Virus genome (UHGV): UHGV-0041029
Source: a virus
Length of the DNA stretch: 15,376 bases
Reading direction: 5' to 3' (one strand)
Shown here: positions 1 through 15,376 of the stretch, in pieces
Numbering within the stretch: the first letter of the stretch is position 1
Layout of the letters: each line of letters starts with the position of its first letter
Notes under the pieces: generated by a model
What the model was told of the DNA's origin: nothing
What the model saw: only the letters and a program-made list of their open reading frames with translations
Database searches by the model: none
Position numbers and translations under genes: made by a program

Positions 1-49
1 CACATGTAGGTTAGCCTCTTACGTGCCGAAAGGCAAGGAGAAGCAGGCT

Positions 50-205: not shown

Positions 206-274
206 GAGACCCGGCGAGGGAGAAATCCCTCGCCACCTCTGATGTGGCAGGCATCCTCAACGCACCCGCACTTA

Positions 275-300
275 ACCCGCTTCGGCGGGTTTTTGTTTTT
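275..300 (+). terminator. Rho-independent terminator after the hok-like gene
   Basis: Stem acccgc (275-280), loop ttcg, stem gcgggt (285-290), followed by tttttgttttt. A perfect 9-bp hairpin with a GAAA tetraloop (213-234, ggcgaggga-gaaa-tccctcgcc) lies just upstream, resembling hok mRNA 3' fold-back elements. Confidence 0.65.
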
Positions 301-421
301 ATTTTCAACGCGTTTGAAGATCTGGACGGTGCCGGAATAGAATCAAAAATACTTAAGTAGCGCGCAGGGATAAGAGGGATGGTCCCTTAAAGGGGAGAGC
401 TAATTATCCGGAAGGATTCTG

Positions 422-673
422 ATGATGAACATCGAAGAACTGCGTAAAATTTTTTGTGAAGATGGCCTCTATGCTGTGTGCGTTGAAAATGGAAATCTTG
501 TTAGTCATTACCGCATTATGTGTTTGCGAAAGAATGGGGCTGCGTTAATTAATTTTGTGGATGGTCGAGTGACAGACGGATTTATCTTGCGCGAAGGTGA
601 GTTTGTCACTTCATTACAGGCACTGAAAGAGATCGGAATAAAAGCAGGCTTTTCAGCTTTTGCAGAAGAATAA
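422..673 (+). CDS. rem: Small prophage protein of unknown function, Rem-like
   Basis: 83-aa ORF with purine-rich region (ggaagg) upstream of ATGATG. Length and position (downstream of hok, upstream of the DUF968 gene) match my recollection of rem in the Qin prophage. Function unknown. Confidence 0.6.
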   Translation: MMNIEELRKIFCEDGLYAVCVENGNLVSHYRIMCLRKNGAALINFVDGRVTDGFILREGEFVTSLQALKEIGIKAGFSAFAEE

Positions 674-739
674 ACTCATCTACAATCTTGCGCGGGGCTG
701 AACTCCCGCTGAGTAACACCGTGCCACCGGAGAAAACCG

Positions 740-1018
740 ATGGCACGCAACGTAAAATATTACAATTCTGATAATTCGCCCGTTCTTGCCTGCACGCACG
801 AGCGGTATTCTCACGCATTCAAGTCTGAATGGTTCCAGCACCCTCCATGCACTGAAGAGCAGGCTGAATGGATAATTCAGTGTTACCGCAGGCGCGGATA
901 CGAGGTTAAGAAAGCTCTTAGTCTCGACTACCGTCACTGGATAATCTCAGTCAGATTGCCTTACTCCGAACGCCCACCGCGTCCGTCCCGTACATTCCAG
1001 CAACGCATCTGGAGGTAA
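740..1018 (+). CDS. Hypothetical protein (92 aa), translationally coupled to the downstream DUF968 gene
   Basis: GGAG at 727-730 sits 9 nt before the ATG at 740. The stop at 1016-1018 is one base before the GTG start of the next gene, and a GGAGG inside its 3' end serves that gene as RBS. No family recognised. Confidence 0.4.
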   Translation: MARNVKYYNSDNSPVLACTHERYSHAFKSEWFQHPPCTEEQAEWIIQCYRRRGYEVKKALSLDYRHWIISVRLPYSERPPRPSRTFQQRIWR

Positions 1019-1019
1019 C

Positions 1020-2069
1020 GTGCGGGTATTACTTCGACCTGTTCTGGTACCGGAACTCGGGCTGGTGGTCGTTAAGCCGGGCCGTGAATCCATGCCGGTA
1101 TTCCACAATACCCGGGTACTGGTGGAGCCGGAACCGAAAAGCATGCGTAATCTGCCGTCCGGGGTCGTTCCTGCCGTTCGCCAGCCGCTGGTGGAAGACA
1201 AAACATTGCTGCCGTTTTTCAGTAACGCACGGGTAATTCGTGCTGCTGGTGGTGCTGGTGCATTGTCTGACTGGCTGTTGCGCCATATTAAATCCTGCCA
1301 GTGGCCACACGGCGATTATCATCACAGCGAAACCGTTATTCACCGTTATGGTACCGGCGCAATGGTGTTGTGCTGGCACTGCGACAACCAGCTGCGTGAC
1401 CAGACATCCGAATCACTCGAGCAACTTGCTCATCAAAACCTGTCAGCATGGATGATTGACGTCATCGGTCACGCAATAAGCGGTACGCAGGAGCGTGAAT
1501 TATCTCTGGCTGAATTATCCTGGTGGGCGGTCCGCAATCAGGTGGCGGACGCGCTACCGGAAGCGGTATTACGTCGCTCGCTGGGATTACCAGCGGAAAA
1601 AAACTGCTCGGTGTACCGCGAAAGCGACATCGTACCGGGAGAGCAGACCGCCACCAGCATATTGAAACAGCGCACAAAAAATCTTGCACCGTTGCCTCAC
1701 GCCCACCAGCAACAAAACCCATCACAGGAAAAGACGGTGGTAAGCATCACCGTTGATCCAGAGTCTCCGGAATCTTTCATGAAGCTGCCTAAACGTCACC
1801 GTTGGGTTAAGGAGAAATACACACGCTGGGTTAAGACACAGCCGTGTGCTTGCTGCGGTATGCCAGCCGACGATCCGCATCATCTGATTGGTCACGGGCA
1901 GGGCGGAATGGGAACCAAAGCACATGATCTCTTTGTGTTGCCTTTGTGCAGAAAGCATCACGACGAGTTGCATACGGATACCGTGGCATTTGAAGAGAAG
2001 TATGGCTCCCAACTGGAGCTGATTTTTCGATTTATCGATCGCGCGCTGGCAATTGGTGTGCTGGCCTAA
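1020..2069 (+). CDS. ydfU: DUF968-family prophage protein with C-terminal HNH-like Cys/His motif, YdfU-like
   Basis: 349-aa ORF with GTG start. C-terminus carries CACCG...[10 protein letters not shown]...[17 protein letters not shown], a CxxC plus His-rich pattern typical of HNH/DUF968 proteins. Length matches Qin ydfU as recalled. Confidence 0.75.
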
Positions 2070-2086
2070 TTTTGTGGAGTAAGTTG

Positions 2087-2464
2087 ATGCGTGATATTCA
2101 GATGGTTCTTGAGCGTTGGGGGGCATGGGCGGCTAATAATCATGAAGATGTGACCTGGTCGTCCATTGCCGCCGGTTTTAAGGGATTAATTCCTTCAAAA
2201 GTAAGATCTCGTCCGCAATGCTGTGACGATGACGCGATGATCATTTGTGAATGTATGGCTCGCCTGAAAAAAAACAACAGCGATTTACATGATTTATTGG
2301 TGGACTATTATGTCGGCGGCATGACTTTTATGGCGCTTGCACGTAAGCATGGGCGATCTGATTGTTGGGTTGGCAGGATGCTCCAGAAAGCTGAGGGCGT
2401 AGTGGAGGGCATGCTGATGGTGTTGGATCTCCGATTGGAGATGGATGCTGATTGTTCGAAATAA
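2087..2464 (+). CDS. Putative late-gene antitermination protein Q-like (short Phage_antitermQ-type)
   Basis: 125 aa from the ATG at 2087, with GGAG 7 nt upstream; the track ORF starts at TTG 2072. Position directly downstream of DUF968 and upstream of a terminator and the lysis genes is the canonical Q slot. Cys cluster ([12 protein letters not shown]) and a helix-turn-helix-like C-terminus. Family assignment is by recollection only. Confidence 0.55.
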
Positions 2465-2562
2465 TTAAAGGAAAAGTTGCTGTCTGATTTTCATTAGTCT
2501 AACATTTTAAATGTTGGAATCGCAACGTAGTTATTATCATATAACAGCTTGTTTCCTGATTT

Positions 2563-2593
2563 AGCCAGCCTCCCCAAAGGCTGGTTTTTTTCT
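2563..2593 (+). terminator. Rho-independent terminator downstream of the Q-like gene (candidate tR'-like)
   Basis: Stem ccagcc (2565-2570), loop tccccaaa, stem ggctgg (2579-2584), then a run of 8 T. Lies between the convergent Q-like and lipocalin genes. The - strand reading lacks a U tract, so it acts mainly on + strand transcripts. Confidence 0.65.
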
Positions 2594-2619
2594 AATAAGT
2601 ATCATTTCGGGTGGGGATT

Positions 2620-3144
2620 TTATTGTTTAACCCATAATAGTTCATTGACATTGAATCCCAACTTTTGAGCGGTACGCACATAGTCTGCTTTTACATTATC
2701 TGGAATAGTTTGGGTCCTTGCCAGAATCCATAGGTATTCTCTGTTCGGACCACTGATAAGAGCATACTTATACTCATCATCCAGCTTGATTACATTATAA
2801 CCACCATAGAAGGGGCCAAAAAACGAAACTTTCAACGCTGCAGTTTTAGTATCTCCAGTAAAGTATGCTTTACCTTCGCTCTCGCTCCATTTGTTTTTCG
2901 TTGGATCGTATCCACGGTTAAGTACGCGAATCCCTCCGTCGTTCCGTTTTTCATAAGTAGCGCTGATCTGTTCCAGACCACGTTCGAACCAGTTCTCGAG
3001 GCGAGCTATTTCATACCATTTTCCGAGGTAGCGGTTGGCGTCAAAATTTGTAATCGGCTGCACACCTTTAGGTGGTGTCGGGGCCTTACATGCTATAAGA
3101 GTGAAAGAGAGTGCAATGCCAGTCAACACAGGCCATAACTTCAT
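2620..3144 (-). CDS. blc: Bacterial lipocalin Blc-like outer-membrane lipoprotein
   Basis: 174 aa. N-terminal signal with lipobox (FTLIAC-K). Lipocalin motifs shared with E. coli Blc: NFDANRYLGKWYEIAR, GKAYFTG, AALKVSFFGPFYGGYNVI, YLWILART. AGGA lies 8 nt upstream of the ATG on the - strand. Confidence 0.8.
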   Translation of the reverse strand: MKLWPVLTGIALSFTLIACKAPTPPKGVQPITNFDANRYLGKWYEIARLENWFERGLEQISATYEKRNDGGIRVLNRGYDPTKNKWSESEGKAYFTGDTKTAALKVSFFGPFYGGYNVIKLDDEYKYALISGPNREYLWILARTQTIPDNVKADYVRTAQKLGFNVNELLWVKQ

Positions 3145-3336
3145 AATAAATCCTGTACTTTTGATAGTTGAGAGTAAGTATGAAAGATAGATGAGTACGA
3201 CCGATCACTTAAAGAACTTTCCTACTATATTAGGAATAGTCAATAACAGAAAAATTGTCAGTGATGAAGCCAGAAAGGCAATTTAGTCCGTGCACTACAA
3301 AGTTTATGTGTTAATGAATTAGTCAAGGGGGAGGAA

Positions 3337-4296
3337 ATGATAAAAAAACCTGTGATTGGGATCAGCGGTTGTTTGGGCGGTTCTGCTGTTCGTTTTGATG
3401 GTGGTCACAAAAGAGATGACTTTTTAATGGACAAATTAGTGGAATGGGTAACATTCAGACCAGTATGTCCGGAAATGGCTATAGGGCTGCCAGTTCCGCG
3501 TCCTGCTCTACGACTTGTGCGCTCGAAGCAAGGAAATATACGGATGTGTTTCAGCCACGACCAGAATGAGGATGTGACAGAGAGAATGACAGAGTTTAGT
3601 CGTTCTTATATGGACAAATTAAAGGATGTATCGGGGTTTGTGGTTTGTGCTAAATCTCCCAGCTGTGGCATGGAGCGCGTGCGTGTCTATGATGAAAATG
3701 GTAATCGAGGTCGTAAAGATGGAGTGGGACTATTTACGAGCACTTTGATGGAAAAGTTTTCCTGGCTACCGGTTGAAGAGGATGGGCGATTACATGATCC
3801 AGTGCTTCGTGAGAATTTTATTGAAAGAGTTTTTGCTTTGCATGAGCTCAATCACCTTTACAAGGAGAAATTATCAAGAAGAGAGTTATTAGCTTTTCAT
3901 AGTCGTTATAAGCTTCAGTTGTTGGCGCATAGCCAGGCAGGCTATAAAGATATGGGACCATTTGTGGCTGCAATACACGAGTGGGCGGACCTTGAATCAT
4001 ACTTTGAGGTGTATCGTGATAATCTGATGGCGATTCTCAAAAAACCAGCATCACGTAAAAATCACACGAATGTGCTGATGCATATACAGGGGTATTTTAG
4101 TAATTACTTAAGTACACGCCAGCGTAAAGAGTTGAGCGAGGTTATACTTAACTATCGCTTTGGCACATTGCCTCTTCTTGCGCCGTTGACTCTGCTGAAG
4201 CATTATCTGGGTGAGTATCCTAATGATTACTTGCTTACACAGAATTACTTCGATCCCTATCCGGAAGAACTGGCTCTAAGACTGATGGTGAATTAA
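3337..4296 (+). CDS. DUF523 (TudS-like thio-nucleobase desulfidase domain) fused to DUF1722 (YbgA-like); RudS-like putative tRNA 4-thiouridine desulfidase
   Basis: 319 aa, strong RBS gggggagg before the ATG. N-terminal half has Cys in the pattern expected for the TudS [4Fe-4S] ligands (GISGC at 12, PVCPE at 44, VVCAKSPSCG at 104/110). C-terminal half resembles YbgA/DUF1722. Domain calls are by recollection. Confidence 0.65.
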   Translation: MIKKPVIGISGCLGGSAVRFDGGHKRDDFLMDKLVEWVTFRPVCPEMAIGLPVPRPALRLVRSKQGNIRMCFSHDQNEDVTERMTEFSRSYMDKLKDVSGFVVCAKSPSCGMERVRVYDENGNRGRKDGVGLFTSTLMEKFSWLPVEEDGRLHDPVLRENFIERVFALHELNHLYKEKLSRRELLAFHSRYKLQLLAHSQAGYKDMGPFVAAIHEWADLESYFEVYRDNLMAILKKPASRKNHTNVLMHIQGYFSNYLSTRQRKELSEVILNYRFGTLPLLAPLTLLKHYLGEYPNDYLLTQNYFDPYPEELALRLMVN

Positions 4297-4702
4297 CTGT
4301 ATGCGATATCATCTGAAAGTGATGAGTTCCTGTATGCAGGATATTTACAATCGTAAAAACTACGCTATGATGCTCATAGTATCAGTTTTTATAAAAATCC
4401 TGTTCACGCTAAAGAAAACATTGAGATGCAATTTAATGTTGGTAAACATACCAGCCCCAAACGATTTTATTCAATCTGTTTTTATATGAAGATATTTCAA
4501 GTGAATATTAAGAGCATATAATATTATTATTGCACGCAGCTATTATAATATAACAGATTAGTTTAATGATTTGTTTTTTGTGAGTTAAACACATGGTTTT
4601 ATAGTTGTGATGCAATGAGATTTTCCTTATTGTTGAACTGGCGAATATTGATTTTCCACCTATACTTACCTGGTGTAACCCCAATGATATCAGGTGGATA
4701 AT

Positions 4703-5416
4703 ATGCCATACATATGTTCTATCATTTTGGTGTTGAACTCGTTTGGTGTCCGAATTGGTAAAGAAGATATTTTGTTTAAAAAAGGAAATGCTGTCCTCAT
4801 TGAATACAATTTAAAAGATCTTTTTTCGTCAAATACAGATCATCTAATGATCGTAGATGTTGAGGAGAAAACAGTTAATGATTTCTTTAAAAACTACACA
4901 CTCTCACCTTTTTCTGTAAGAAGGTTTTATCCGTCATACTTGATAGTAGAATGTGAAGATTTTTCATTGTTAAAGAACTTGGTTGCATGCTTGAATTGTG
5001 ATAGCAAAACCGTGGATGTAGTTAGAAATCAAATATCACTTGCATGTCTTGCTGTCTTATCTTCAGAGAAAATAGTGCAAAGTTTTTTGTTCGGAAGTCT
5101 TAATAGCTTAGGTTGTAAAGTTAAGGCTATTATTCACTCGGATATCTCAGCGTCATGGAGACTTTGTGATATATCTTCAAGATTATATATGAGCGAGAGT
5201 TTGTTAAAAAGAAAATTAAAAGACGAAGGATTATCGTTTAGTAAATTAATTCTTGAAGAACGAATGATGATGGCGCAAAGATTATTGATCTACAGTAACC
5301 ATACTGTCGGCAAGGTGGCGGGAATATGCGGGTATGACAATGCATCATATTTTGTAAGTGTTTTTAGAGGATATTTTGGTGTGCCTCCGCACCAATATTT
5401 ATCAAGATTTTCTTAG
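4703..5416 (+). CDS. AraC/XylS-family transcriptional regulator, GadX/AppY/YdeO-like
   Basis: C-terminal double-HTH AraC signature (WRLCDISSRLYMSESLLKRKLKDEGLSFSKLI ... GYDNASYFVSVFRGYFGVPPHQY). Gene and upstream 400 bp are visibly AT-rich. Start is probably the ATG at 4703 (aggtgg upstream); the track ORF starts at GTG 4694. Confidence 0.8.
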   Translation: MPYICSIILVLNSFGVRIGKEDILFKKGNAVLIEYNLKDLFSSNTDHLMIVDVEEKTVNDFFKNYTLSPFSVRRFYPSYLIVECEDFSLLKNLVACLNCDSKTVDVVRNQISLACLAVLSSEKIVQSFLFGSLNSLGCKVKAIIHSDISASWRLCDISSRLYMSESLLKRKLKDEGLSFSKLILEERMMMAQRLLIYSNHTVGKVAGICGYDNASYFVSVFRGYFGVPPHQYLSRFS

Positions 5417-5482
5417 AAGATATGATGTGATGGCATTTTATAAAGTTATTTTTTGAAGTGTAAGATTATACGATATTTTTAG

Positions 5483-5516
5483 CTACGCCAGAATAATTGC
5501 TGGCGTTTTTCTTTTT
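5483..5516 (+). terminator. Rho-independent terminator after the AraC-family gene
   Basis: Stem acgccag (5485-5491), loop aataattg, stem ctggcgt (5500-5506), followed by tttttcttttt. Confidence 0.6.
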
Positions 5517-5606
5517 GAATAGATGTTCGGGCCTTACGCTAATGTAACTTCTTTCCTTCTTCGAACCAAACCGTGTACACCATCCGTTATCTGCGGAGGT
5601 GAGGCT

Positions 5607-5822
5607 ATGAAATCCATGGATAAGTTAACAACGGGCATCGCCTACAGCACCTCTGCAGGCAGTGCTGGCTACTGGTTTTTACAGTTGCTCGATAAAGTCA
5701 CGCCCTCACAGTGGGCGGCAATAGGTGTATTGGGTAGTCTGGTATTTGGCATGCTGACGTATCTGACAAATCTTTATTTCAAGATTAAAGAAGACAGGCG
5801 TAAGGCTGCGAGAGGAGAGTAA
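5607..5822 (+). CDS. essQ: Class II holin / pinholin (phage 21 S21-like) with dual-start motif
   Basis: 71 aa beginning MKSMDK (Met1 and Met4, the S21 antiholin/holin dual start), with ggaggtgagg RBS. Two TM segments and a basic C-terminus ([13 protein letters not shown]). The track ORF at 5523 is an in-frame N-terminal extension without RBS support. Confidence 0.85.
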
Positions 5823-5826
5823 TCCA

Positions 5827-6134
5827 ATGACTCAAGACTATGAACTGGTTGTGAAAGGAGTCCGTAATTTTGAGAATAAAGTTACGGTAACTGTAGCCTT
5901 ACAGGACAAAGAACGCTTTGACGGTGAAATTTTTGGCCTGGATGTCGCCATGGACCGTGTTGAAGGAGCTGCGCTGGAGTTTTATGAGGCAGCAGCCAGA
6001 ATGAGCGTCCGGCAAGTCTTCCTGGAAGTAGCAGAAAAATTGTCAGAAAAAGTTGAGTCTTATCTGCAGCATCAGTACTCCTTTAAGATTGAAAATCCTG
6101 CCAATAAGCACGAGCGTCCTCATCATAAATATCT

Positions 6135-6138
<4 letters not shown>
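5827..6138 (+). CDS. ydfR: Lysis-cassette protein of unknown function, YdfR-like
   Basis: 103 aa, RBS gagaggag. Wedged between holin and endolysin, with its stop overlapping the endolysin start (ATGA). Length and position match ydfR of Qin as recalled. Confidence 0.7.
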
Positions 6139-7162
<1,024 letters not shown>

Positions 7163-7407
7163 ATTAATATTAAATCGGATTATTTTTAGCGCTGAATGTG
7201 AAATTTAAATAAAAAGGACTCTTCCATGAGTCAAAATCCTTGAAATCTTAAGGGTAAGATAAAAGGTCATTAGACAGAATGACACGTTTTATTAATAAAT
7301 AAAGCTATTGTTTCATTCGTGTGTTTTTCTTTACAAAAGTAATCCTTGCTATGGTTGGTTAATCATGCGTTAATGGTGTTCTGGTTTGTTACAAAATTAT
7401 CTGAAGC

Positions 7408-7430
7408 AGTCATTGTTATAATTTTATTAT
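7408..7430 (+). promoter_or_regulatory. Candidate extended -10 promoter (TGnTATAAT) for the cold-shock gene with long 5' UTR
   Basis: tgttataat at 7414-7422 inside an AT-rich leader about 100 nt before the cspI-like start. CspA-family genes typically have long structured 5' UTRs. No convincing -35 seen. Confidence 0.3.
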
Positions 7431-7522
7431 TTGTACCTCTTGAGATTTCCTTGTTGGTTTTTCTCTCTGATATTTTTTTTCGGACCATTCTGCCCAAGGG
7501 CTAACTTCTTCAAAAGGTAATA

Positions 7523-7738
7523 ATGATGTCTAACAAAATGACTGGTTTAGTGAAATGGTTTAACCCTGAAAAAGGTTTTGGTTTCATCACGCCGAAAGAT
7601 GGTAGCAAAGATGTGTTTGTGCATTTCTCAGCTATTCAGAGCAACGATTTCAAAACGTTAACTGAGAATCAGGAAGTCGAATTTGGTATTGAGAACGGAC
7701 CTAAAGGCCCTGCAGCTGTTCATGTAGTGGCACTTTGA
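7523..7738 (+). CDS. cspI: CspA-family cold-shock protein
   Basis: [23 protein letters not shown]...VFVHFSAIQ carries the RNP1/RNP2 cold-shock domain motifs. ATGATG start, so the true start may be 7526 giving 70 aa. Symbol given from Qin-like context (followed by ynfN-like and gnsB-like genes); paralogue identity is not certain. Confidence 0.85.
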
Positions 7739-7942
7739 GGTAGAAAATATTACAAACCATATTCACTTTAGATGCCCGTGTTGCCATGGTTCTCAGTATA
7801 GAACATCATCTTTTGATGTTTCTGACAGAAATCCTTTCGGGGCAAAATGTATCTTTTGTAAATCAATGATGATTACATTTGATAATATTTCACAATACTT
7901 AAATGTTAGCCATCTGTCGTTAGATTTAAGAAAGTGAAAATG

Positions 7943-7966
7943 AAGGCTCCTTCGGGAGCTTTTTTG
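7943..7966 (+). terminator. Rho-independent terminator
   Basis: Stem ggctcc (7945-7950), loop ttcg, stem ggagct (7955-7960), followed by tttttt. Confidence 0.55.
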
Positions 7967-8084
7967 CTTAGTGTCTAGTCGATGGATACTCACATATTAC
8001 GGTAACATTATGAAAAAAATAATAGTTTTTTTTAACTCTGAACCAGCAATGGTAGTGCCAGTGATGACCGGAGTTAACACCATC

Positions 8085-8240
8085 ATGCGTGAATATCCAA
8101 ATGGCGAAACAACACACCTCACTGTAATGGCTGCAGGGTTTCCATCTCTGACCGGAGATCATAAAGTCATTTATGTAGCAGCGGATCGACATGTAACTTC
8201 AGAAGAAATTCTGGAAGCAGCAATGAGACTCTTGAATTGA
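8085..8240 (+). CDS. ynfN: Small prophage protein, YnfN-like
   Basis: 51-aa product from the ATG at 8085, with GGAG 10 nt upstream. Sits between the cspI-like and gnsB-like genes as in Qin. The same frame is open back to 7971, so a longer product cannot be excluded. Confidence 0.45.
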   Translation: MREYPNGETTHLTVMAAGFPSLTGDHKVIYVAADRHVTSEEILEAAMRLLN

Positions 8241-8412
8241 TTTGATTCTAATGCATTGATAATAAATGATAATCATCTTTATCTGTTTGTGTGAAATTTA
8301 GACCGTCGTATGTTGATTATTGCGATGTTTCATCTTATCTTTTATACGTTTGCTCCATATAATTGACACTACTGTGTACCAGGACAGTCATAACAGACTA
8401 AAAGAGGAAATG

Positions 8413-8586
8413 ATGAACATTGAAGAGTTAAAAACAAAAACAGAAGCAGATATTTCTGAATATATAACAAAAAAAATCATTGAGCTTAAGAAAAAGACCG
8501 GGAAAGAAGTTACCAGTATCCAGTTTACTGCACGGGAAAAAATGACTGGTCTTGAAAGCTATGATATCAAGATTGATTTAATCTAG
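8413..8586 (+). CDS. gnsB: GnsA/GnsB-family small protein
   Basis: 57-aa product MNIEELKTKTEADISEYITKKIIELKKKTGKEVTSIQFTAREKMTGLESYDIKIDLI matches the GnsA/GnsB family. aagagg RBS 5 nt before the ATG at 8413; the track ORF from 8320 is an unsupported extension. Confidence 0.8.
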   Translation: MNIEELKTKTEADISEYITKKIIELKKKTGKEVTSIQFTAREKMTGLESYDIKIDLI

Positions 8587-8650
8587 CATGTTTATAGTAT
8601 TAGCATCAATTTCTCATCAGATGCTATTCAACAATACAAATTACCCATAA

Positions 8651-8676
8651 ACCTCGTTTTTACGGGGTTTTGTTAT
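8651..8676 (+). terminator. Rho-independent terminator after the gnsB-like gene
   Basis: cctcgt-tttt-acgggg hairpin (one G-U pair) followed by ttttgtt. Confidence 0.45.
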
Positions 8677-8881
8677 ATTTAAACATTACCGAATAGATAT
8701 AAATCTCGATTGTCGATGGTATTGGTTGTGTGACAATACCTAGTCTTTCCGGTATGCCTGAAGAGAATACAAACGACAGATTATGTAAGGGAAACGCGCT
8801 GAAACTTTCACTCTTTCATGCTGAGTGATTTGACGTTATATTTTTAGCCGCAAGTGAAGAGCAAACGAATGGAGCGACAAA

Positions 8882-9088
8882 ATGCATAAAGATCAATACA
8901 CTGATGCCCCCTCCCAGGAGCAGGTTCGTGTAAAAACTATGCTTAATAGCACCATTTCGATGGGTTACCCGGATGTTGTAATTGCATGTATAGAACATCA
9001 AGTATCTCTGGAAGCATTCAGGGCAATTGAGGCCGCGTTAGTAAAGCACGATAAGAATACGAAGGATTATTCCCTGGTGGTTGACTGA
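8882..9088 (+). CDS. Hypothetical protein (68 aa)
   Basis: ORF with GGAG 7 nt upstream of the ATG. No family recognised. Confidence 0.4.
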
Positions 9089-9439
9089 TCACCATAACTG
9101 CTAACCATTCTGACCATTTCACAAGTGACAGAGTCAATATCGTATTCTGTCACTGTAAGGCTAATACAGTACTGCAATTCAACTACAGCAATGCCTCGTA
9201 TTTAGGTGAATTTACAATATCGTCCAGTTCGGATGCCGGCTGCATTTCTGAAGATAAGGCATTTCGGTTCGCGTATTTTCCCCTCATGCTCGTCAGTCCT
9301 GCGCGTAGTAAGAAACAGGACACTCACACTAATTTGTGTGGGCATGCTGTGATGTCCTTCTGAATTATCCCCATGCCATTATGTAAAGCTCTGTTTCAGA
9401 TGCTCGTCACGGTTGTCAGGCTGTCGGGTCCTCCCAGTG

Positions 9440-9480
9440 GGGGTCCCTGCCACGGGGCGGGAGCGTCGCGGAAAAAGACT
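9440..9480. other. Candidate cos site (cosN-like, lambda-type cohesive end)
   Basis: ccacgGGGCGGGAGCGTCGCGG (9451-9471) resembles the lambda cosN context acgGGGCGGCGACCTCGCGG. It lies about 195 bp upstream of the small-terminase start, close to the roughly 190 bp spacing in lambda as I recall it. The lambda sequence is quoted from memory. Confidence 0.4.
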
Positions 9481-9649
9481 AGTTTTTGCATTTCCATGGC
9501 GGCGGCAGCATGTTTGGTAATTTATTGATAATTAAAAGTTATTTCTCTTTTCACCTGTACAATATTTTTTCTCCCTGTTATTAGACCAGTTTGCAATTAA
9601 TTGAAATATATAAATAAACCTGATTTTCACCTGCCAGATGGAGTTGCTT

Positions 9650-10177
9650 ATGTCAAATGTGAGCGGGATCGGTGATGCTTATTACTGGAGTGTTTTTAAA
9701 ATCGCCGAGGCCTTTGGGCTTCACCGGGACACAGTAAAAAAACGGCTCCTCGCGGCCAACACTCCTGTGGCTGCGACTGTCAGGGGGAACCCCGTTTACG
9801 CCCTGCAGCATGTCGGGCCCGCCCTGTTTAGTGTGAAGCATGAGGCAGCAGACTCTGTTCATGATCCATCCCGTATGGAGCCGAAAGAGAGAAAAGACTG
9901 GTACCAGTCTGAAAATGAAAGGATCAAGCTGGAAAAGGAGCAGCGAAAACTCATCCCAGTTGATGAAGTAGTCATCGTCTATTCGTCCATGAGAAAGGCT
10001 GTCGTCCAGGTTCTGGAGACAATTCCGGATGTTCTTGAACGCGATTGCGCCCTGACTCCTCAGGCCGTCGGCGTTGTACAGCAGGCCATTGATGACCTGC
10101 GATACACTCTTCAGGAAAAATCCTACGAGGCTTGTGCTGCTGAATTAATTCCTGATGAGGAAGGAGAGAGTCTCTAG
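9650..10177 (+). CDS. Terminase small subunit (Nu1-like DNA-packaging protein)
   Basis: About 175 aa from the ATG at 9650 (GGAG 6 nt upstream). N-terminal HTH-like segment (YYWSVFKIAEAFGLHRDTVKKRL), acidic C-terminus, immediately upstream of and coupled to the large terminase. Family call from architecture and context. Confidence 0.65.
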   Translation: MSNVSGIGDAYYWSVFKIAEAFGLHRDTVKKRLLAANTPVAATVRGNPVYALQHVGPALFSVKHEAADSVHDPSRMEPKERKDWYQSENERIKLEKEQRKLIPVDEVVIVYSSMRKAVVQVLETIPDVLERDCALTPQAVGVVQQAIDDLRYTLQEKSYEACAAELIPDEEGESL

Positions 10178-10185
10178 GAGGAATA

Positions 10186-11919
10186 ATGGGTTTTTCATCA
10201 GCCCGAAATTTGGGAAGGGACATATCGGCAGGATTTTCCCCACCACGTCGCATGCCGATTTCGGAGGCTGTTAAAAAATTCATGCGTGTTCCCAAGGGGG
10301 CTGGTAACTCGGTGCCATGGGATCCTGAACTGACACCCTACATCATTGAGCCCATGAACTGCCTGGCATCGCGTGAATACGATGCGGTGATTTTTGTTGG
10401 TCCTGCGCGAACAGGGAAGACCATTGGTCTGATCGATGGATGGATTGTCTATACCATCGTTTGCGATCCTTCGGACATGCTCGTTGTGCAGATGACCGAA
10501 GATAAGGCCCGCGAGCATTCTAAAAAGCGCCTCGACAGAACGTTCAGAAGCAGTGCGGCGGTAAAGAAAAGAATGAGTCCACGTCGTAACGACAATAATG
10601 TCCATGATAAGACGTTCAGGGATGGCTCGTTCCTTAAAATTGGTTGGCCCTCGGTCAACATTATGTCGTCGTCGGATTACCGGTTTGTCGCCTTAACCGA
10701 TTACGACCGTTTTCCGGAGAATATCGACAGCGAGGGTGATGGTTTCTCCCTAGCCTCAAAACGTACCACCACATTTATGTCCGCCGGGATGACTCTGGTG
10801 GAGAGCTCGCCGGGACGTGACATCTGCGACAGCAAATGGCGACGTAAGTCGCCTCATGAAGCGCCACCGACGACTGGTATTCTTTCCCTTTACAATCGTG
10901 GTGACCGCCGCCGCTGGTACTGGCCATGTCCGCACTGCGGTGAATATTTTCAGCCAGCTATGGATGCCATGACCGGCTACCGTAATGAACCGGATCCCTT
11001 TAAAGCCAGTGAGGCGGCGTATCTACTTTGCCCGCACTGCAGCGGCATTATCACTGCGGAGAAAAAGCGTGAGCTCAATAGTGCAGGAGTCTGGTTACGT
11101 GAAGGTCAGGTCATTGATCGTAACGGCAACGTTTCCGGTGAACCGCGCCGCTCCCGTATCGCCAGTTTCTGGATGGAAGGGCCAGCTGCTGCGTATCAGA
11201 CCTGGGCGCAACTGGTTTACAAATTACTGACTGCAGAACAGGAGTATGAAGCGACAGGAAGCGAAGAAACACTCAGGGCGGTTATCAACACCGACTGGGG
11301 ATTACCTTATCTTCCTCGTGCCAGCATGGAGCAACGAAAAAGTGAACTGCTTGAGCAGCGGGCAGAGCCAGTTCCTTCCCGCAGTGTTCCGGATGGCGTT
11401 AATTTCCTTGTGGCGACAGTGGATGTGCAGGCGGGACGTCATCGCCGTTTTGTGGTTCAGGTAACGGGCTATGGCAGCCGTGGCGAACGCTGGATTATTG
11501 ATCGTTACAACATCACGCAGTCATTGCGCAGTGACTGCGACGGGGAGAGCCAGCGAATTGATCCGGCCAGCTATCCGGAAGACTGGGATGTCCTGCTGGG
11601 GAGCTGGTTTTACGACGAACTGACGTATGAAGAGCGGAGCAGTGACGGGAAATGGAGTAAGCCGGGTCGCGGTGCCAACGAAGCTTTTGACCTGATGGTG
11701 TATGCCGAGGCGCTGGTCATTCTGCATGGATACGAAAAGATCCGCTGGCCGGATGCACCGGAGTGGGCGAGCCGGGAAACCTGGCTGGAGTGTGTCCCGG
11801 ACAGTACCGAACCGTCACCCTCACCGGAGCCGGTATCCACGCCTGTTAAAAAACAAAAACGGAAGAAAACAGTAACTGACGATGTTAACCCCTGGCTGAC
11901 TTCCGGAGGATGGTTATGA
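10186..11919 (+). CDS. Terminase large subunit, lambda gpA family
   Basis: 577 aa. Walker A P-loop (VIFVGPARTGKT), Cys-rich motifs (WYWPCPHCGEYF and LLCPHCSGI) comparable to the lambda gpA CPHC region, and a C-terminal nuclease-type region. Confidence 0.85.
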   Translation: MGFSSARNLGRDISAGFSPPRRMPISEAVKKFMRVPKGAGNSVPWDPELTPYIIEPMNCLASREYDAVIFVGPARTGKTIGLIDGWIVYTIVCDPSDMLVVQMTEDKAREHSKKRLDRTFRSSAAVKKRMSPRRNDNNVHDKTFRDGSFLKIGWPSVNIMSSSDYRFVALTDYDRFPENIDSEGDGFSLASKRTTTFMSAGMTLVESSPGRDICDSKWRRKSPHEAPPTTGILSLYNRGDRRRWYWPCPHCGEYFQPAMDAMTGYRNEPDPFKASEAAYLLCPHCSGIITAEKKRELNSAGVWLREGQVIDRNGNVSGEPRRSRIASFWMEGPAAAYQTWAQLVYKLLTAEQEYEATGSEETLRAVINTDWGLPYLPRASMEQRKSELLEQRAEPVPSRSVPDGVNFLVATVDVQAGRHRRFVVQVTGYGSRGERWIIDRYNITQSLRSDCDGESQRIDPASYPEDWDVLLGSWFYDELTYEERSSDGKWSKPGRGANEAFDLMVYAEALVILHGYEKIRWPDAPEWASRETWLECVPDSTEPSPSPEPVSTPVKKQKRKKTVTDDVNPWLTSGGWL

Positions 11920-11960
11920 ATCAGAATGATATTGAAGCCATGATTCAGCGTTATGGGTGA
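11916..11960 (+). pseudogene. 5' stub (14 codons) of the gene that followed terminase, truncated by deletion
   Basis: ATG overlaps the terminase stop (ATGA), typical coupling for the next head gene. The frame stops after MNQNDIEAMIQRYG, where tape-measure homology begins in another frame. Confidence 0.3.
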
Positions 11961-12798
11961 TCAGCAGCGGCAGCGATATCAGGTACAACTGAGTCTTCGC
12001 CAGAAATACCAGCAACAGCTGGAGCAGTTGAGGCGGGATAGTGAGCAGAAAGGAATATATAACACGGATGACTACAGAAAGGCCGAGCAGGCGCTGACGG
12101 AGAGCCTGAACCGACAACTGAATGAGAATCGCCGTTACTGGCAACAGCTTGAAGTTGTGCAGGGTAACTGGAAAAACGGAGTCCTGCGTGCATTTCAGAA
12201 TTTTACCGTGGATGCAGATAATACGGCAGGAACAGCAGAACAGGTGTTCTCGTCAGCCTTCAGCAACATGGGAAATGGCCTAGCAACTTTTGTCACTACC
12301 GGCAAACTCAATTTCAAATCCTTCACCTCTTCTGTGCTGTCAGATATGGCGAAAATCCTGGCGCAGGCAACCATGATGAAATCGATAAAAGGGATTGGCA
12401 GTGTACTGGGATTTGATCTCAGCAGCCTTTCCCTGAATGCCAATGGGGGGATTTATCAGTCTGCTGATTTGAGTCGTTACAGTGGCACGGTGGTTAACCG
12501 TCCGACGTTTTTTGCTTTTGCAAAAGGCGCGGGTGTGATGGGGGAAGCGGGACCTGAAGCCATTCTGCCACTGCGTCGTGGTGCTGACGGTAAGCTGGGG
12601 GTTGTGGCGGATATTGGTGGTTCAGGTATGGCGATGTTTGCCCCGCAGTACAACATCGAGATCAATAACGATGGCACGAACGGGCAGATAGGTCCGGCTG
12701 CCCTGAAGGTGGTTTATGACCTCGGGAAAAAAGCGGCAGCGGACTTTATGCAACAGCAGGCCCGTGATGGTGGTCGGTTAAGTGGAGCATATCGGTAA
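11953..12798 (+). pseudogene. C-terminal fragment (about 280 aa) of a lambda-like tail tape measure protein (gpH)
   Basis: The C-terminus (NIEINNDGTNGQIGPAALKVVYD...ARDGGRLSGAYR) parallels the lambda gpH C-terminus (VINNDGTNGQIGPAALKAVYD...MRDGGLFSGGGR). The stop overlaps the gpM start (TAATG). No N-terminal 500+ aa present. Confidence 0.8.
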
Positions 12799-13127
12799 TG
12801 GAGACGTTTCACTGGAAAGTGCGCCCGGATATGAATGTGGTATCAGAGCCGAAAGTGGTGACAGTGAAGCTGGGCGATGGTTATGAACAGCGTCGTGCGG
12901 CGGGACTGAATAACCAGTTGTCGATTTACAGCGTGACGATACGTGTTCGTAAATGTGAACACCCATCTTTAAAAGCCTTTCTGGAACGGCACGGTGGCGT
13001 CCGCGCATTTCAGTGGACGCCACCTTATGACTGGAAGCCGATCAGGGTGGTTTGTCGTAAATGGTCGGCAAGCGTGGGGGCGCTGTGGGTAACCATAACG
13101 GCAGATTTTGAACAGGTCGTGGCATAG
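12798..13127 (+). CDS. Minor tail protein M (lambda gpM homologue)
   Basis: 109 aa, METFHWKVRPDMNVVSEPKVV...EFQWTPPYDWKPIRVVCRKWSA...DFEQVVA, collinear with lambda gpM and the same length. Confidence 0.85.
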   Translation: METFHWKVRPDMNVVSEPKVVTVKLGDGYEQRRAAGLNNQLSIYSVTIRVRKCEHPSLKAFLERHGGVRAFQWTPPYDWKPIRVVCRKWSASVGALWVTITADFEQVVA

Positions 13128-13136
13128 GAGGCCCTG

Positions 13137-13409
13137 ATGCAGGATATTTCACAGGAAACACATCATGAGACGACACGCCTCACTCAGTCAGCCCAGGTGG
13201 TGCTCTGGGAAATCGATCTGACCGAGGTAGGCGGGGATCGCTACTTTTTCTGTAATGAGCAGAACGAAAAAGGTGAGTCTGTCACCTGGCAGAGTCGGCA
13301 GTATCAGGCCTATCCCATTCAGGGGAGTGGATTTGAGATGAACGGCAAGGGCAGTGCTGCCCGTCCGACACTGACGGTCTCTAACCTGCACGGCATGATC
13401 ACCGGGATG
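13137..13409 (+). pseudogene. N-terminal fragment (about 91 aa) of minor tail protein L (lambda gpL homologue)
   Basis: MQDISQETHHETTRLTQSAQVVLWEIDLTEVGGDRYFFCNEQNEKGESVTWQSRQYQAYPIQGSGFEMNGKG...TLTVSNLHGMITGM matches the lambda gpL N-terminus. Homology stops near 13409; the open frame runs on to 13523 through unrelated sequence, which is gpJ read out of frame. Confidence 0.8.
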
Positions 13410-13876
13410 GGAATACCAACATCGCCGGTGTCACGGTGGTGTTCCGGGCTGGTGAGCAGGAGCAGACTCCGCCGGAGGGATTTGAATCCTCCGGCTCCGA
13501 GACGGTGTTGGGTACGGAAGTGAAATACGACACGCCGATCACCCGCGCCATCACGTCGGCAAACATCGACCGTCTGCGCTTTACCTTCGGTGTGCAGGCA
13601 CTGGTGGAAACCACCTCAAAGGGGGACCGGAATCCGTCGGAAGTTCGCCTGCTGGTTCAGATACAGCGTAATGGTGGCTGGGTGACGGAAAAAGACATCA
13701 CCATTAAGGGCAAAACCACCTCGCAGTATCTGGCCTCGGTGGTGGTGGATAACCTGCCGCCGCGCCCGTTTAATATCCGGATGCGCAGAATGACGCCGGA
13801 CAGCACCACAGACCAGCTGCAGAACAAAACGCTCTGGTCGTCATACACCGAAATCATCGATGTGAAACAGTGCTAT
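13409..13876 (+). pseudogene. Internal fragment of tail tip/host-specificity protein J (lambda gpJ, about residues 55-220)
   Basis: NTNIAGVTVVFRAGEQEQTPPEGFESSGSETVLGTEVKYDTPITR...[18 protein letters not shown] is near-identical to the lambda gpJ N-terminal region as recalled. It lacks the gpJ start and the C-terminal 900 or so residues. Confidence 0.8.
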
Positions 13877-14309
13877 TCCAGCTGGCTTCGTGGCTGTTTT
13901 CAACAGTGATGAGTCATCGTGGCATCTCGTTGAAGATCATCGGGGTAAAACGGTTTATGACGTGGCTTCCGGCGACGCGTTATTTATTTCTGAACTCGGC
14001 TCATTACCGGAAAATGTCACCTGGTTATCCCCGGAAGGGGAGTTTCAGAAGTGGAACGGCACAGCCTGGGTGAAAGATGCAGAAGCAGAAAAACTATTCC
14101 GGATCCGGGAGGCGGAAGAAACAAAAAACAGCCTGATGCAGGCAGCGAATGAGCATATTGCGCCACTTCAGGATGCTGTAGATCTGGAAATCGCAACGGA
14201 GGAAGAAAACTCGTTGCTGGAAGCCTGGAAAAAGTATCGGGTGTTGCTGAACCGTGTTAATACAACAACTGCACCGGATATTGAATGGCCAGTAGCACCT
14301 ATAGGGTAA
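13875..14309 (+). pseudogene. C-terminal fragment of tail fibre assembly protein (Tfa family)
   Basis: [67 protein letters not shown]... matches Tfa proteins (TfaQ/TfaE-like). Homology starts abruptly at the gpJ junction, so the N-terminal 50-60 residues are missing. An in-frame GTG/ATG could still allow a truncated product. Confidence 0.75.
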
Positions 14310-14392
14310 ATTCGTAATGATTACCTAAATACGTTATTCTTTTGTTCAAAAAGTGATTTTGCTATAGGTAGGGAGTATGTTCTTGGATTAAG

Positions 14393-14425
14393 AATAAAAA
14401 ATCGCCATGAAAGAGCTTCATGGCG
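14393..14425 (-). terminator. Rho-independent terminator for a leftward (- strand) transcript
   Basis: Perfect 9-bp hairpin cgccatgaa-agagc-ttcatggcg (14403-14425). On the - strand it is followed by a T tract (+ strand aataaaaaat, 14393-14402); on the + strand no U tract follows. Confidence 0.5.
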
Positions 14426-14902
14426 AGTACATAAACGTACAAAATGTGATGAAAGTAGAGTGGCGTAAGCCACTATATTAAGATATGACAATAGCGAACA
14501 AAAGTAAATAACATTTTATGGACGTTTAATTGTTAATTATAAAAACTAGAGTGCCCGATATTGTTTATCTTGCTTTAAAATAATGTACTCAAACCAAATT
14601 TTTGAGCTAAAAGCTCAAATAATATAAATGCAATGATAATGTTTAATAAGACAATTAGCTTGCTTTGTATTTTCATTTCGGAATACTGTTAAGTAACTTT
14701 GATGACCCTAACAATAGATCGGAATTTTCTTAGAGTCAATGGTCACTGTTTTTGTTTGCAAAGCAAATGTTTTGGTGGTTATAAGTTTTCCTAATATAGT
14801 CACCTATGCAACTTGTTCCGTGTGGAGATTAAAGGTTAAAATTTAATGCGAAGATGGAATTATAATATATTTTTTTATAATTAATTTAACCTTAACATCG
14901 TT

Positions 14903-14997
14903 GCTGGCGGCATGGAAGAAATATCGGGTCTTGCTGATATCGTGTTGGCACTTCCTTAGTGCGGTTATCGAATGGCCAGCTGTACCTGTGGGGTAAA
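14903..14997 (+). repeat. Degenerate second copy of the tfa 3' end (direct repeat of about 14217-14310)
   Basis: gcatggaagaaatatcgggtcttgctg...atcgaatggccagctgtacctgtggggtaa aligns with gcctggaaaaagtatcgggtgttgctg...attgaatggccagtagcacctatagggtaa at the end of the tfa fragment. The middle part is divergent. Confidence 0.5.
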
Positions 14998-15128
14998 AAC
15001 TTTATATGGATGCTATTTTTATAATAGCTGGTAAAAACTGGCCGAACTGAAATTCACTGTTGATAAAAAAGATGTGTTTGAGTGTATGTCATTGTTTTCT
15101 TAATGGAATCCACTAGAATGCAGCGAAT

Positions 15129-15326
15129 TTAAGAAGGTGGGTTTTTATTGGAATATAAACTACAATAATGCTCAACTCGTTCGTAGAATTGTTTTTTCTT
15201 ATTTCTTGGAATGCTAACCATTATATGCATTATGGGGGCGATACTTCCTGATAATTTACATGATGCATACATTGAAGCAATAAATTCAATATCATTGTCA
15301 TCAAAGTTAAAGCTTTCTCCGTCCAT
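15129..15326 (-). CDS. Hypothetical small protein (65 aa) in AT-rich DNA
   Basis: Only an ORF in an AT-rich region. No RBS or family support checked, and AT-rich DNA yields chance ORFs less often but not never. Confidence 0.2.
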   Translation of the reverse strand: MDGESFNFDDNDIEFIASMYASCKLSGSIAPIMHIMVSIPRNKKKQFYERVEHYCSLYSNKNPPS

Positions 15327-15376
15327 TTCAATTCCTTATGTGTTTGGCACAACTGATGCTGTATCCCATGAGAATT

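Follow-up and report, generated by a model that had tools for sequence, protein, structure and literature searches.

A probable λ-type cohesive-end site in a decayed lambdoid prophage of the Escherichia coli Qin locus

The cos–terS region

We analyzed a stretch of 15,376 nucleotides from a viral genome (UHGV-0041029), referred to here as the window. It begins at hokD, and the left arm of the prophage to which it belongs lies outside it. A compact packaging region is followed by the genes for a small and a damaged large terminase and by fragments of tail genes, as listed below. Coordinates are those of the window, offsets with a plus sign are in mature-genome numbering, and slashes within sequences mark predicted nicks.

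9426–9432, plus strand: cosQ-equivalent heptamer GGGTCCT (packaging-termination signal), identical to the λ heptamer
9452–9471, plus strand: cosN core, ACG/GGGCGGGAGCGT/CGCGG, assigned from its unique pattern, record termini, λ identity and low polymorphism
9455–9466, plus strand: predicted 12-nt 5' cohesive end, GGGCGGGAGCGT, from the λ alignment
9467–9487, plus strand: conserved segment adjoining cosN, CGCGGAAAAAGACTAGTTTTT, at the position of λ I2
9488–9512 (+34 to +58), plus strand: candidate TerS-binding box at the R3-equivalent position, GCATTTCCATGGCGGCGGCAGCATG, aligning with the ATTTYCATGCTGTCAGCAGCAGGT block of other genera
9518–9530 (+64 to +76), minus strand: predicted IHF site, TATCAATAAATTA, an exact match to the consensus WATCAANNNNTTR
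9548–9557 (+94 to +103), plus strand: copy a of the direct repeat TTTTCACCTG, a candidate R-type repeat at the R2-equivalent position
9624–9633 (+170 to +179), plus strand: copy b of TTTTCACCTG, a candidate R-type repeat just before terS
9650–10177, plus strand: terS, intact, small terminase (DUF1441/PF07278; Pfam E = 1.7e-44)
10186–11919, plus strand: terL, gpA-type large terminase with an in-frame internal deletion of 366 bp (junction 11595–11598; Pfam, BLASTP and blastn)
11952–13875, plus strand: tail-gene fragments (tape-measure C-terminus, gpM, gpL fragment and gpJ fragment; blastn against Tritos, Pfam)

An earlier note on this DNA had proposed a candidate cos site at a λ-like distance before the small terminase, centered on a 12-mer that, flanked by ACG and CGCGG, resembles λ cosN. 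The 12-mer is indeed present, in the context ...ccacg/GGGCGGGAGCGT/cgcgg..., and its surroundings align with λ; the alignment that the note had called for showed the cosQ heptamer, ACG/GGGCGG and T/CGCGG to be common to the window and λ. Compared with λ GGGCGGCGACCT, the 12-mer is identical at eight of 12 bases. Bases 1–6 agree throughout (6/6), all four differences fall within bases 7–12 (at bases 7, 8, 9 and 11), and the CG dinucleotides flanking the nicks (ACG/ and /CGCGG) are the same as in λ. These are the traits by which λ-like cohesive ends have been defined, namely significant identity to the λ 12-mer with conservation of bp 1–6 and of the nick-flanking CG dinucleotides, bases 7–12 being the naturally variable half of the overhang in λ-like phages (Feiss et al.). 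The pattern ACGGGGCGGN6CGCGG had a single match in the 15.4 kb when both strands were searched with up to two mismatches (0.01 expected).

The records of two related phages, cdtI (AB285204) and Tritos (OV696610), have position 9455 as their first base and 9454 as their last. Tritos is functional, with virions and plaques described in the Tritos paper. From the depositors' chosen record start and the alignment to λ, we infer that the top strand is nicked at 9454/9455 and the bottom strand at 9466/9467. The Tritos paper contains no cos or terminus analysis, the Ayreon announcement predicted cos packaging from TerL phylogeny only, and a full-text literature search for GGGCGGGAGCGT returned as its sole match an unrelated mammalian promoter paper. 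A promoter and terminator scan of 9000–9800 found nothing, and a reading of the region as a transcription signal was dropped on that account.

The cosQ-equivalent heptamer starts 29 bp before the predicted top-strand nick, compared with 30 bp in λ (λ 48473–48479), and is also found in cdtI, Tritos, HannyBb, PhiR40_1, mEp460, mEp213 and CP-1639. Downstream of cosN, the elements can be compared with the λ-like cosB, in which the TerS-binding R sequences are arranged in the order R3, I1, R2 (inverted), R1, with λ R3 at about bp 48–65. The box at 9488–9512 may be a place at which TerS binds. The search for an IHF site between 9470 and 9650, also suggested in the note, yielded the exact consensus match at 9518–9530, one of two in the window (0.99 expected over the whole 15.4 kb). 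The two copies of TTTTCACCTG are the only ones in the window and both are direct; they were spotted by eye and confirmed by script, and were not reported by an automated repeat search with a 6-nt seed.

Two ATG codons lie near the expected start of terS, at 9638 (+184) and 9650 (+196). We favor the latter, which has a GGAG Shine–Dalgarno sequence at 9641–9644, gives the conserved MSNV... N-terminus and agrees with the Tritos and PGAP annotations; it lies 195 bp from the 12-mer, in line with the distance of about 195 bp originally noted. For comparison, λ Nu1 starts at bp 191. TerS is identical to that of cdtI (179/179 residues) and has no significant similarity to λ Nu1 by BLASTP (E = 4.6). 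Searching PDB sequences with a profile turned up no more than a weak MarR match (E = 0.022). The AlphaFold model has an N-terminal helix–turn–helix and a β-hairpin, for which the best, weak, Foldseek matches were winged helix–turn–helix domains of the MerR/RacA/BldC type (E about 0.1, TM-target about 0.6); the structure of Nu1 was absent from the 50 best matches.

The region thus shares with λ cos a 12-nt GGGCGG-type end, the flanking CG dinucleotides, GGGTCCT about 30 bp upstream, an IHF-consensus site between cosN and terS, a terS start at about +190 to +196 and a gpA-type TerL, whereas λ R sequences are not recognizable in its cosB and its TerS is of the DUF1441 type, not significantly similar to Nu1. 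On this comparison of sequences, the resemblance to λ cosN is one of homology and not of chance. We put at close to nine in ten the probability that 9426–9650 is a true λ-type cohesive-end site (cosQ, cosN and cosB) that descends from a lambdoid phage of the cdtI/Tritos type and survives in a decayed Qin-locus prophage of E. coli. The homology to λ cosQ and cosN supports the initial proposal of a cos site, as do the ends of the cdtI and Tritos records and the conservation described below.

Variation within E. coli and across genera

The cos region was found in 2048 of 5426 complete E. coli genomes, in up to seven places per genome. Across 57 E. coli haplotypes, the cosQ/cosN/IHF layout was the least polymorphic part of the region. 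None of the seven cosQ sites varied, compared with 13 of 19 in the adjoining cosQ–cosN spacer; the cosN core had two singletons in 20 positions, the predicted IHF site had none of its 13 positions polymorphic, and the segment from copy b of TTTTCACCTG towards the ATG had one singleton in 27 positions. Constraint on copy a is doubtful because it is polymorphic within E. coli (4/11 sites variable).

An alignment-based scan of species-representative genomes revealed a footprint in other genera. The arrangement CCACG/GGGCGGNNNNNN/CGCGGRAAAMGGCTNGTTTT, lying 153–198 bp upstream of a DUF1441-type terS and with the IHF consensus at +64, was observed in Erwinia, Morganella, Proteus, Providencia, Rahnella, Xenorhabdus and Phytobacter. 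The CGCGGRAAAMGGCTNGTTTT element was kept in 11 DUF1441-terS loci from eight genera, and the IHF consensus in these cos regions was exact at +64 in six of 11, with four more having at most one mismatch at +62 to +64. Overhang bases 7–12 were variable across genera as well. Other genera carry a CACCT/AGGTG motif at the same offset as copy a of TTTTCACCTG, and CACCT at +174 is kept in Morganella, Proteus, Providencia, Rahnella and Xenorhabdus. Their cosB is built from TGTCA (+46), the IHF site (+64), TGACA (+102) and TGTCA (+122), and these TGTCA/TGACA repeats are mostly absent from the window. At the cosQ position, natural variation across genera is between GGGTCCT and GGTACTCC. When IMG/VR was scanned with TerS, the loci obtained were all at or near 100% identity.

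Three sites set this copy of cos apart from some or all of its relatives. Position 9478 is A in the window and G in the cross-genus alignment, A being a common E. coli allele that several haplotypes, among them the most frequent, carry. The T-run at 9565–9570 has undergone a rare 1-bp contraction (T6 instead of T7), which also occurs in other E. coli loci. Position 9579 has a private C→T change, at a base that is invariably C in 84 other E. coli loci; the change falls in the only TGTCA of the cdtI-type cosB, and a TGTCA occupies the R1-equivalent offset in other genera. Either the change at 9579 or the T-run contraction could impair function.

Deletions in a Qin-locus prophage

The element is a decayed lambdoid prophage of the Qin locus: it is collinear with an intact lambdoid phage except for deletions (blastn against Tritos), and it adjoins ydfJ (comparison with strain LWY6). 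Qin-locus prophages of strains LWY6 and FDAARGOS_1077 are 98%–99.8% identical to the window, have the same gene order, also adjoin ydfJ and carry other, independent deletions. Window segments 1–11573 and 13874–15376 are 99.7% identical to the LWY6 prophage, which stops just before ydfJ, is about 24.5 kb long (roughly half of the 46.4-kb Tritos genome) and has int, xis, exo, cI-like and cro-like genes, as is ordinary for a lambdoid prophage. We rejected common descent of the terL deletions in LWY6 and the window, as their breakpoints differ (11573 and 11598, respectively). The three independent deletion variants of the locus all keep cos and terS.

Relatives with complete genomes share the cos–terS region at 97%–99% identity and TerS at 100% (cdtI; Tritos; HannyBb, PP925841). 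They differ from the window in being complete phages of 45–47 kb with a full-length TerL (699 aa in cdtI), whereas the window has the terL deletion, no head genes and the private C→T at 9579.

The large terminase is gpA-type (PF05876 and PF20454; 24% identity to λ gpA). By BLASTP, residues 1–471 correspond to cdtI 1–471 and residues 469–577 to cdtI 594–699, leaving out cdtI residues from about 472 to 593, a loss of 122 residues from the GpA nuclease domain that includes AVDSGG, which aligns with λ WDTGG. The GpA_ATPase domain is full by Pfam, and GpA_nuclease is split in two stretches, the better of which covers profile positions 1–123 of 294. The large terminase of the window is therefore neither of full length nor in possession of its whole nuclease domain. 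The deleted DNA corresponds to Tritos 2146–2507 (blastn), and the junction has microhomology. It had been suggested that both terminase subunits are retained; this is true of TerS, and TerL survives only without this part of its nuclease domain.

Further right, window 11952–13410 corresponds to Tritos 11929–13387 and window 13406–13875 to Tritos 15331–15800 (blastn), with Pfam matches to Tape_meas_lam_C, Phage_min_tail, partial Phage_tail_L and FNIII-A_GpJ. The three deletion junctions relative to Tritos each have 2–4 bp of microhomology. Judged from the alignment to Tritos, at least three illegitimate-recombination deletions have occurred in the element, and it is because of these that the head genes are missing; the portal, capsid and most tail genes have been deleted. 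Their absence had thus been recognized correctly, and its cause is random scarring and not design. Given these losses, from the TerL nuclease domain as well as from the head and tail genes, the cos site cannot act autonomously in this element, and the remnant cannot package itself.

Function of the retained site and alternative readings

In an intact phage, by extension from λ, the DUF1441 small terminase would bind the cosB repeats (9488–9637) and IHF would bend the DNA at 9518–9530. The gpA-type large terminase would thereby be placed to nick at 9454/9455 and 9466/9467, leaving the 12-nt 5' ends GGGCGGGAGCGT. Packaging would proceed rightward, in the direction from terS to terL, with cosQ (9426–9432) serving termination when the motor arrives from the left. 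Because the cos DNA of the window is nearly intact, the terminase of a cdtI-type phage, whether co-resident or superinfecting, can probably still cut it in trans; productive transduction would in that case need a second compatible cos at capsid-sized spacing.

Such helper-dependent packaging has a proposed precedent in the O157 Sakai prophages Sp4 and Sp14, for which packaging of Sp4 in trans has been published as a proposal. Sp4 resembles the window in being defective, in having a disabled terminase gene and in sharing its cos with other prophages; it differs in that an IS disrupts its small subunit, whereas the window has an in-frame deletion in the large one. By analogy, packaging through a common cos is possible in principle where a cdtI-type phage is co-resident, and the kept cos could then permit occasional mobilization of the remnant. 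This would be relevant to the spread of prophage-borne genes and is not new in principle. Gifsy-2 has the same layout with a different overhang (GGTGGC...); we considered it as the nearest characterized relative and set it aside, since the overhang differs and it adds little.

An alternative that we judge unlikely, while giving it some weight, is that cos is present merely by descent and is no longer cut even in trans, having been inactivated by the changes at 9579, 9565–9570 and 9478. The private C→T, in the only TGTCA of the cdtI-type cosB, is consistent with this, as is the density of differences from Tritos, which is higher in the 195-bp cos region (four differences) than in the next 1949 bp of coding DNA (eight; Fisher p = 0.018). 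The 401-bp cos region moreover had no perfect match in any of the complete E. coli genomes searched (best 99.8%). But divergence is expected to be faster in non-coding than in coding DNA anyway, and both A at 9478 and the T6 run recur elsewhere in E. coli. The cosQ, cosN core, IHF site and box b are all the same as in functional phages, and in N15 a single R3 is enough for packaging.

We regard as quite improbable the idea that an intact cos and terS, with an ATPase-proficient, nuclease-deleted TerL, may be kept for the benefit of host or element. The module might act as a decoy or dominant-negative against incoming cdtI-type phages, or as an in-situ packaging start from which a co-resident cdtI-type phage takes up chromosomal DNA rightward of the prophage (the ydfJ side), towards another compatible cos. 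Points that fit a retained module are the persistence of cos and terS in three deletion variants, a TerS 100% identical to that of active phages, and a terL deletion that is in frame.

The suggestion of a satellite-like mobilizable element, which keeps cos and terminase genes, dispenses with head genes and lives by packaging into helper capsids, is highly improbable. It draws on the combination of intact cos and terS with absent head genes, again retained in all three Qin-locus variants. It also draws on the terminase-defective Sp4, which was packaged, probably by the terminase of Sp14 with its identical cos, and on the co-resident copies of cos in some E. coli genomes. The scars, however, also cut terL, the tape-measure gene, gpL and gpJ, which points to decay and not streamlining, and satellite hallmark genes were absent from the window and from the homologous LWY6 and FDAARGOS_1077 loci. 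Under the packaging-size rules of λ, neither a monomer nor a dimer of a prophage of ~24.5 kb, the size of that in LWY6, would fit well.

The closest model for such an element would be the cos-type PICIs (EcCICFT073 and relatives), which depend on the helper phage's capsid and terminase. These share λ-like cosQ and cosN with the window. They are otherwise built differently: PICIs lack both a phage-type cosB and terminase genes and encode Rpp where TerS would be, whereas the window has a full phage-type cosB, terS where cos-type PICIs have rpp, and a damaged terL, and is collinear with the Tritos late region. The satellite-like configuration that had been proposed is not supported; the site is of a known kind, in an ordinary relic and not a purpose-built satellite. 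The remaining possibility, a chance likeness to λ cosN in a non-coding spacer that plays no part in packaging, has nothing in its favor beyond the shortness of the motif first noted and is excluded because the pattern was found once against 0.01 expected; the termini of two phage records also fall exactly at 9454/9455, and eight genera keep the layout at a distance from terS that hardly varies.

The λ-type cohesive-end site of the Qin-locus prophage matters mainly for annotation. With it, cos and the origin of the mature genome can be placed in the cdtI/Tritos/HannyBb group as well as in hundreds of Qin-locus prophages of E. coli. A modest by-product is the cross-genus alignment, which is a usable consensus for finding cos in DUF1441-terS prophages of the Enterobacterales. 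Finally, we noted that current annotations place spurious "hypothetical proteins" over cos.

The cos site and the ends of related phage genomes

The cos site at 9455 is a genuine one of λ type; it comes from a known phage lineage and survives as a relic within a defective prophage at the Qin locus. Deposited phage genomes already have their ends at this same sequence. Megablast of positions 9300–9700 against such genomes identified three close relatives: HannyBb (99%), Tritos (98.4%), and cdtI (97.6%). The cdtI and Tritos records both start at query base 156 (window 9455), and the alignment places their ends, ...CCTGCCACG, at ...9454 of the window and their starts, GGGCGGGAGCGTCGCGG..., at 9455 onward. 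The HannyBb record was opened at another point and is continuous across the cos junction. Tritos (prophage 3 of LF82) is a working phage, with virions seen by electron microscopy and plaques on MG1655.

Features of the window around the cos site
9426–9432: GGGTCCT heptamer at the cosQ position
9455–9466: 12-mer, predicted 5' cohesive end of cosN
9518–9530: exact IHF consensus
9548–9557 and 9624–9633: direct repeat, copies a and b
9638–10177: ORF of terS, small terminase, DUF1441 (Pfam)
10186–11919: terL, large terminase, Pfam GpA_ATPase, with GpA_nuclease in two stretches, the best covering profile positions 1–123 of 294
Downstream of terL: tape-measure C-terminus, gpM, partial gpL, gpJ fragment, and tail-fibre assembly protein (Pfam)

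The window sequence around the 12-mer reads ...CCTGCCACG GGGCGGGAGCGT CGCGGAAAAAG... The λ-derived pattern ACGGGGCGGN6CGCGG (two or fewer mismatches, both strands) occurred once in the 15.4-kb window, compared with an expectation of 0.01 from shuffles, and the search thus identified a single cos. The earlier note had proposed a candidate cos site here, about 195 bp before the small-terminase ATG. Its coordinates and distance are correct (the ATG at 9650 is +196, counting base 9455 as +1), and the cos interpretation is supported by homology to λ, the termini of the cdtI and Tritos records, and conservation. Where the nicks fall, which contacts TerS and IHF make, and that the site can be cut in trans are inferred.

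When the window and λ were aligned by anchoring at the nick, both had GGGTCCT upstream (λ 48473–48479), with 29 bp from heptamer start to nick in the window versus 30 bp in λ, and both had the left nick ACG/GGGCGG and the right nick T/CGCGG (slash, nick). The overhangs have four mismatches (bases 7, 8, 9, and 11), and the small terminase starts at +196 in the window versus bp 191 for λ Nu1. Such 12-base 5' ends define the λ-like phages, in which conservation covers the left half of the overhang, the CG dinucleotides that flank it, and cosQ, and overhang bases 7–12 are naturally variable, for example, in N15 and Gifsy-1 (Feiss et al.). At the sequence level, the window cos matches this description exactly.

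We noted that the virion-derived assembly of mEp460_4F5 (L012, LR595868; bases 1–30) begins CCACGGGGCGGGAGCGCGGAAAAAGG; its first base falls 5 bp to the left of where the nick is predicted, and three bases are missing from the overhang's right edge, a pattern resembling an assembly artefact at a physical cos end. Small "hypothetical protein" CDSs are annotated over cosQ, cosN, and cosB in HannyBb (L003 1407–1806); these and a window ORF (9373–9528) overlap the hypervariable cosQ–cosN spacer, and all are probably spurious.

Conservation within Escherichia coli and across genera

Polymorphism was assessed in 80 IMG/VR prophage loci (TerS ~100% or 100% identity) and four reference loci from E. 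coli, reduced to 57 haplotypes of modal length.

Polymorphic sites among the 57 haplotypes
Upstream of cosQ: all sites, mosaic boundary
cosQ: 0 of 7
cosQ–cosN spacer: 13 of 19
cosN core: 2 of 20, both singletons
IHF site: 0 of 13
Box b (repeat copy b) to terS ATG: 1 of 27, a singleton

Every locus spanning the junction passed the motif filter, and the invariance of cos is therefore not a product of the selection step. The window carries a private C→T at 9579, invariant C in all 84 other E. coli loci, which changes the only TGTCA of the cdtI-type cosB to TGTTA. Functional phages also differ from the window at 9565–9570, where it has a rare T6 allele, and at 9478, where it has an A allele common in E. 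coli. Of 5426 complete E. coli genomes, 2048 carry the cos–terS region, in as many as seven places in one genome, and some genomes therefore hold co-resident copies; a perfect match to the 401-bp cos region was not found in the complete E. coli genomes of the collection (best 99.8%).

An alignment of 22 DUF1441 small terminases (47%–88% identity) was used to fetch 64 loci from species-representative genomes. The motif CCACG/GGGCGGNNNNNN/CGCGGRAAAMGGCTNGTTTT lies 153–198 bp upstream of terS in seven other genera (Erwinia, Morganella [two species], Proteus, Providencia [two species], Rahnella, Xenorhabdus, and Phytobacter), with overhang bases 1–6 invariant and bases 7–12 freely variable. The IHF consensus (YAANNNNTTGATW, top strand) is exact at +64 in six of 11 aligned cos regions and has at most one mismatch at +62 to +64 in four further sequences. 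In the whole 15.4-kb window the consensus matches exactly only twice (0.99 expected by chance), at 9518–9530 and, upstream of gnsB, at 8249–8261 on the minus strand. The Morganella, Proteus, Providencia, Rahnella, and Xenorhabdus loci carry TGTCA/TGACA at +46 (forward), +102 (inverted), +122 (forward), and +178 (inverted), and most also at +191 (forward). The IHF site falls between the first two of these pentamers, and the arrangement reproduces the λ order R3-I1-R2(inverted)-R1. An extra inverted TGTCA/TGACA pair overlaps the terS ribosome-binding site in cos regions L102–L121.

At the cosQ position, ∼30 bp before the nick, DUF1441-terS prophages of Morganella, Proteus, Providencia, Rahnella, Xenorhabdus, and Phytobacter (L102, L106, L107, L111, L113, L114, L121, and L139) have GGTACTCC, not GGGTCCT, as does Salmonella Gifsy-2 (L160 385–395). 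The literature consulted describes cosQ as invariant among λ-like phages; in this wider family, cosQ therefore does vary naturally.

cosB and the small terminase

The cdtI-type cosB is defined only in part. The repeat TTTTCACCTG is present in the window only as direct copies a (+94) and b (+170), at offsets coinciding with AGGTG/CACCT motifs of other genera. E. coli loci differ in copy a (variants TTTTCAGCTG and TTTTTACCTG), and we therefore do not claim it as a binding site. A block at +34 to +58, the R3-equivalent position, aligns with a conserved block of other genera.

The first downstream ORF has 179 codons from 9638 and a second in-frame ATG at 9650. The latter is the likely terS start, since it is preceded by GGAG (9641–9644), gives the MSNV... 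N-terminus common to diverged homologues, and is used by the Tritos and RefSeq annotations. Window and cdtI TerS are identical (179/179); significant sequence similarity to λ Nu1 was not found. The AlphaFold model (mean pLDDT 76) has an N-terminal helix-turn-helix (HTH) and β-hairpin followed by long helices. Its best structural matches were weak (MerR/RacA/BldC-type winged HTH domains, ∼50 residues), as was a MarR match in a profile search; model and matches are consistent with a Nu1-like DNA-binding mode without establishing it.

Deletions and possible packaging in trans

TerL has 577 aa in the window versus 699 aa in cdtI, with residues 1–471 matching cdtI 1–471 and residues 469–577 matching cdtI 594–699. 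Window 9455–11598 corresponds to Tritos 1–2145 (99.4%) and 11595–11954 to Tritos 2508–2867, an in-frame loss of 366 bp (122 codons; junction 11595–11598). The deleted segment includes AVDSGG, aligned with WDTGG in the nuclease half of λ gpA. In RNase-H-like terminase nucleases, a conserved acidic residue in that strand is catalytic, and the window nuclease is therefore predicted to be dead. Also absent is Tritos 2868–11928 (9.06 kb; junction 11952–11954), comprising the rest of the gpW-like adaptor gene, the portal, capsid, neck, and tail-tube genes, and most of the tape-measure gene, which fuses the gpW-like gene start to the tape-measure C-terminus. Loss of Tritos 13388–15330 (1.9 kb; junction 13406–13410) joins gpL' to gpJ'. 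Microhomology of 2–4 bp, the hallmark of illegitimate recombination, is present at each of the three junctions.

Genes in the left two thirds of the window (hokD, ydfU, Q, morons, holin, ydfR, rrrQ, rzpQ, cspI, ynfN, gnsB, and a ybcW-like gene) are collinear both with the late region of Tritos and with Qin-locus prophages adjoining ydfJ in E. coli LWY6 and FDAARGOS_1077, which have different, independent deletions downstream of terS. The window, LWY6, and FDAARGOS_1077 variants alike keep cos and terS. The left breakpoint of the LWY6 deletion region (L008 21648–23705) corresponds to window 11573, and FDAARGOS_1077 (L159 12575–17015) has a full-length terL and a portal'–tape-measure' fusion.

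The satellite-like reading of the earlier note, in which the arrangement is what packaging by a helper would require, is not supported and does not describe an adaptation: the element is a decaying prophage with a damaged terL, and the process that removed the head genes also shredded its tail genes. In the characterised cos-type satellites of E. coli (PICIs), cosQ and cosN are present but a phage cosB is not, Rpp is encoded where phages have TerS, and terminase genes are absent. The window element differs from them in kind. Packaging in trans needs only cos in cis. The terminase-defective prophage Sp4 was detected in particles by Asadulghani et al., who credited its packaging to the terminase of Sp14, a prophage with an identical cos. 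By analogy with λ, termination of packaging would require a second cosQ–cosN downstream, and the window has one cos only. The homologous LWY6 prophage is ∼24.5 kb, roughly half of the 46.4-kb Tritos genome; by λ packaging-size limits, neither a monomer nor a dimer of it would fit well.

Finally, we noted moron-like genes between the Q antiterminator and the lysis cassette, encoding a Blc lipocalin, a YbgA-family protein, and an HTH protein (2620–3144, minus strand; 3337–4296, plus; 4694–5416, plus), the HTH gene within a stretch of 31%–34% GC.
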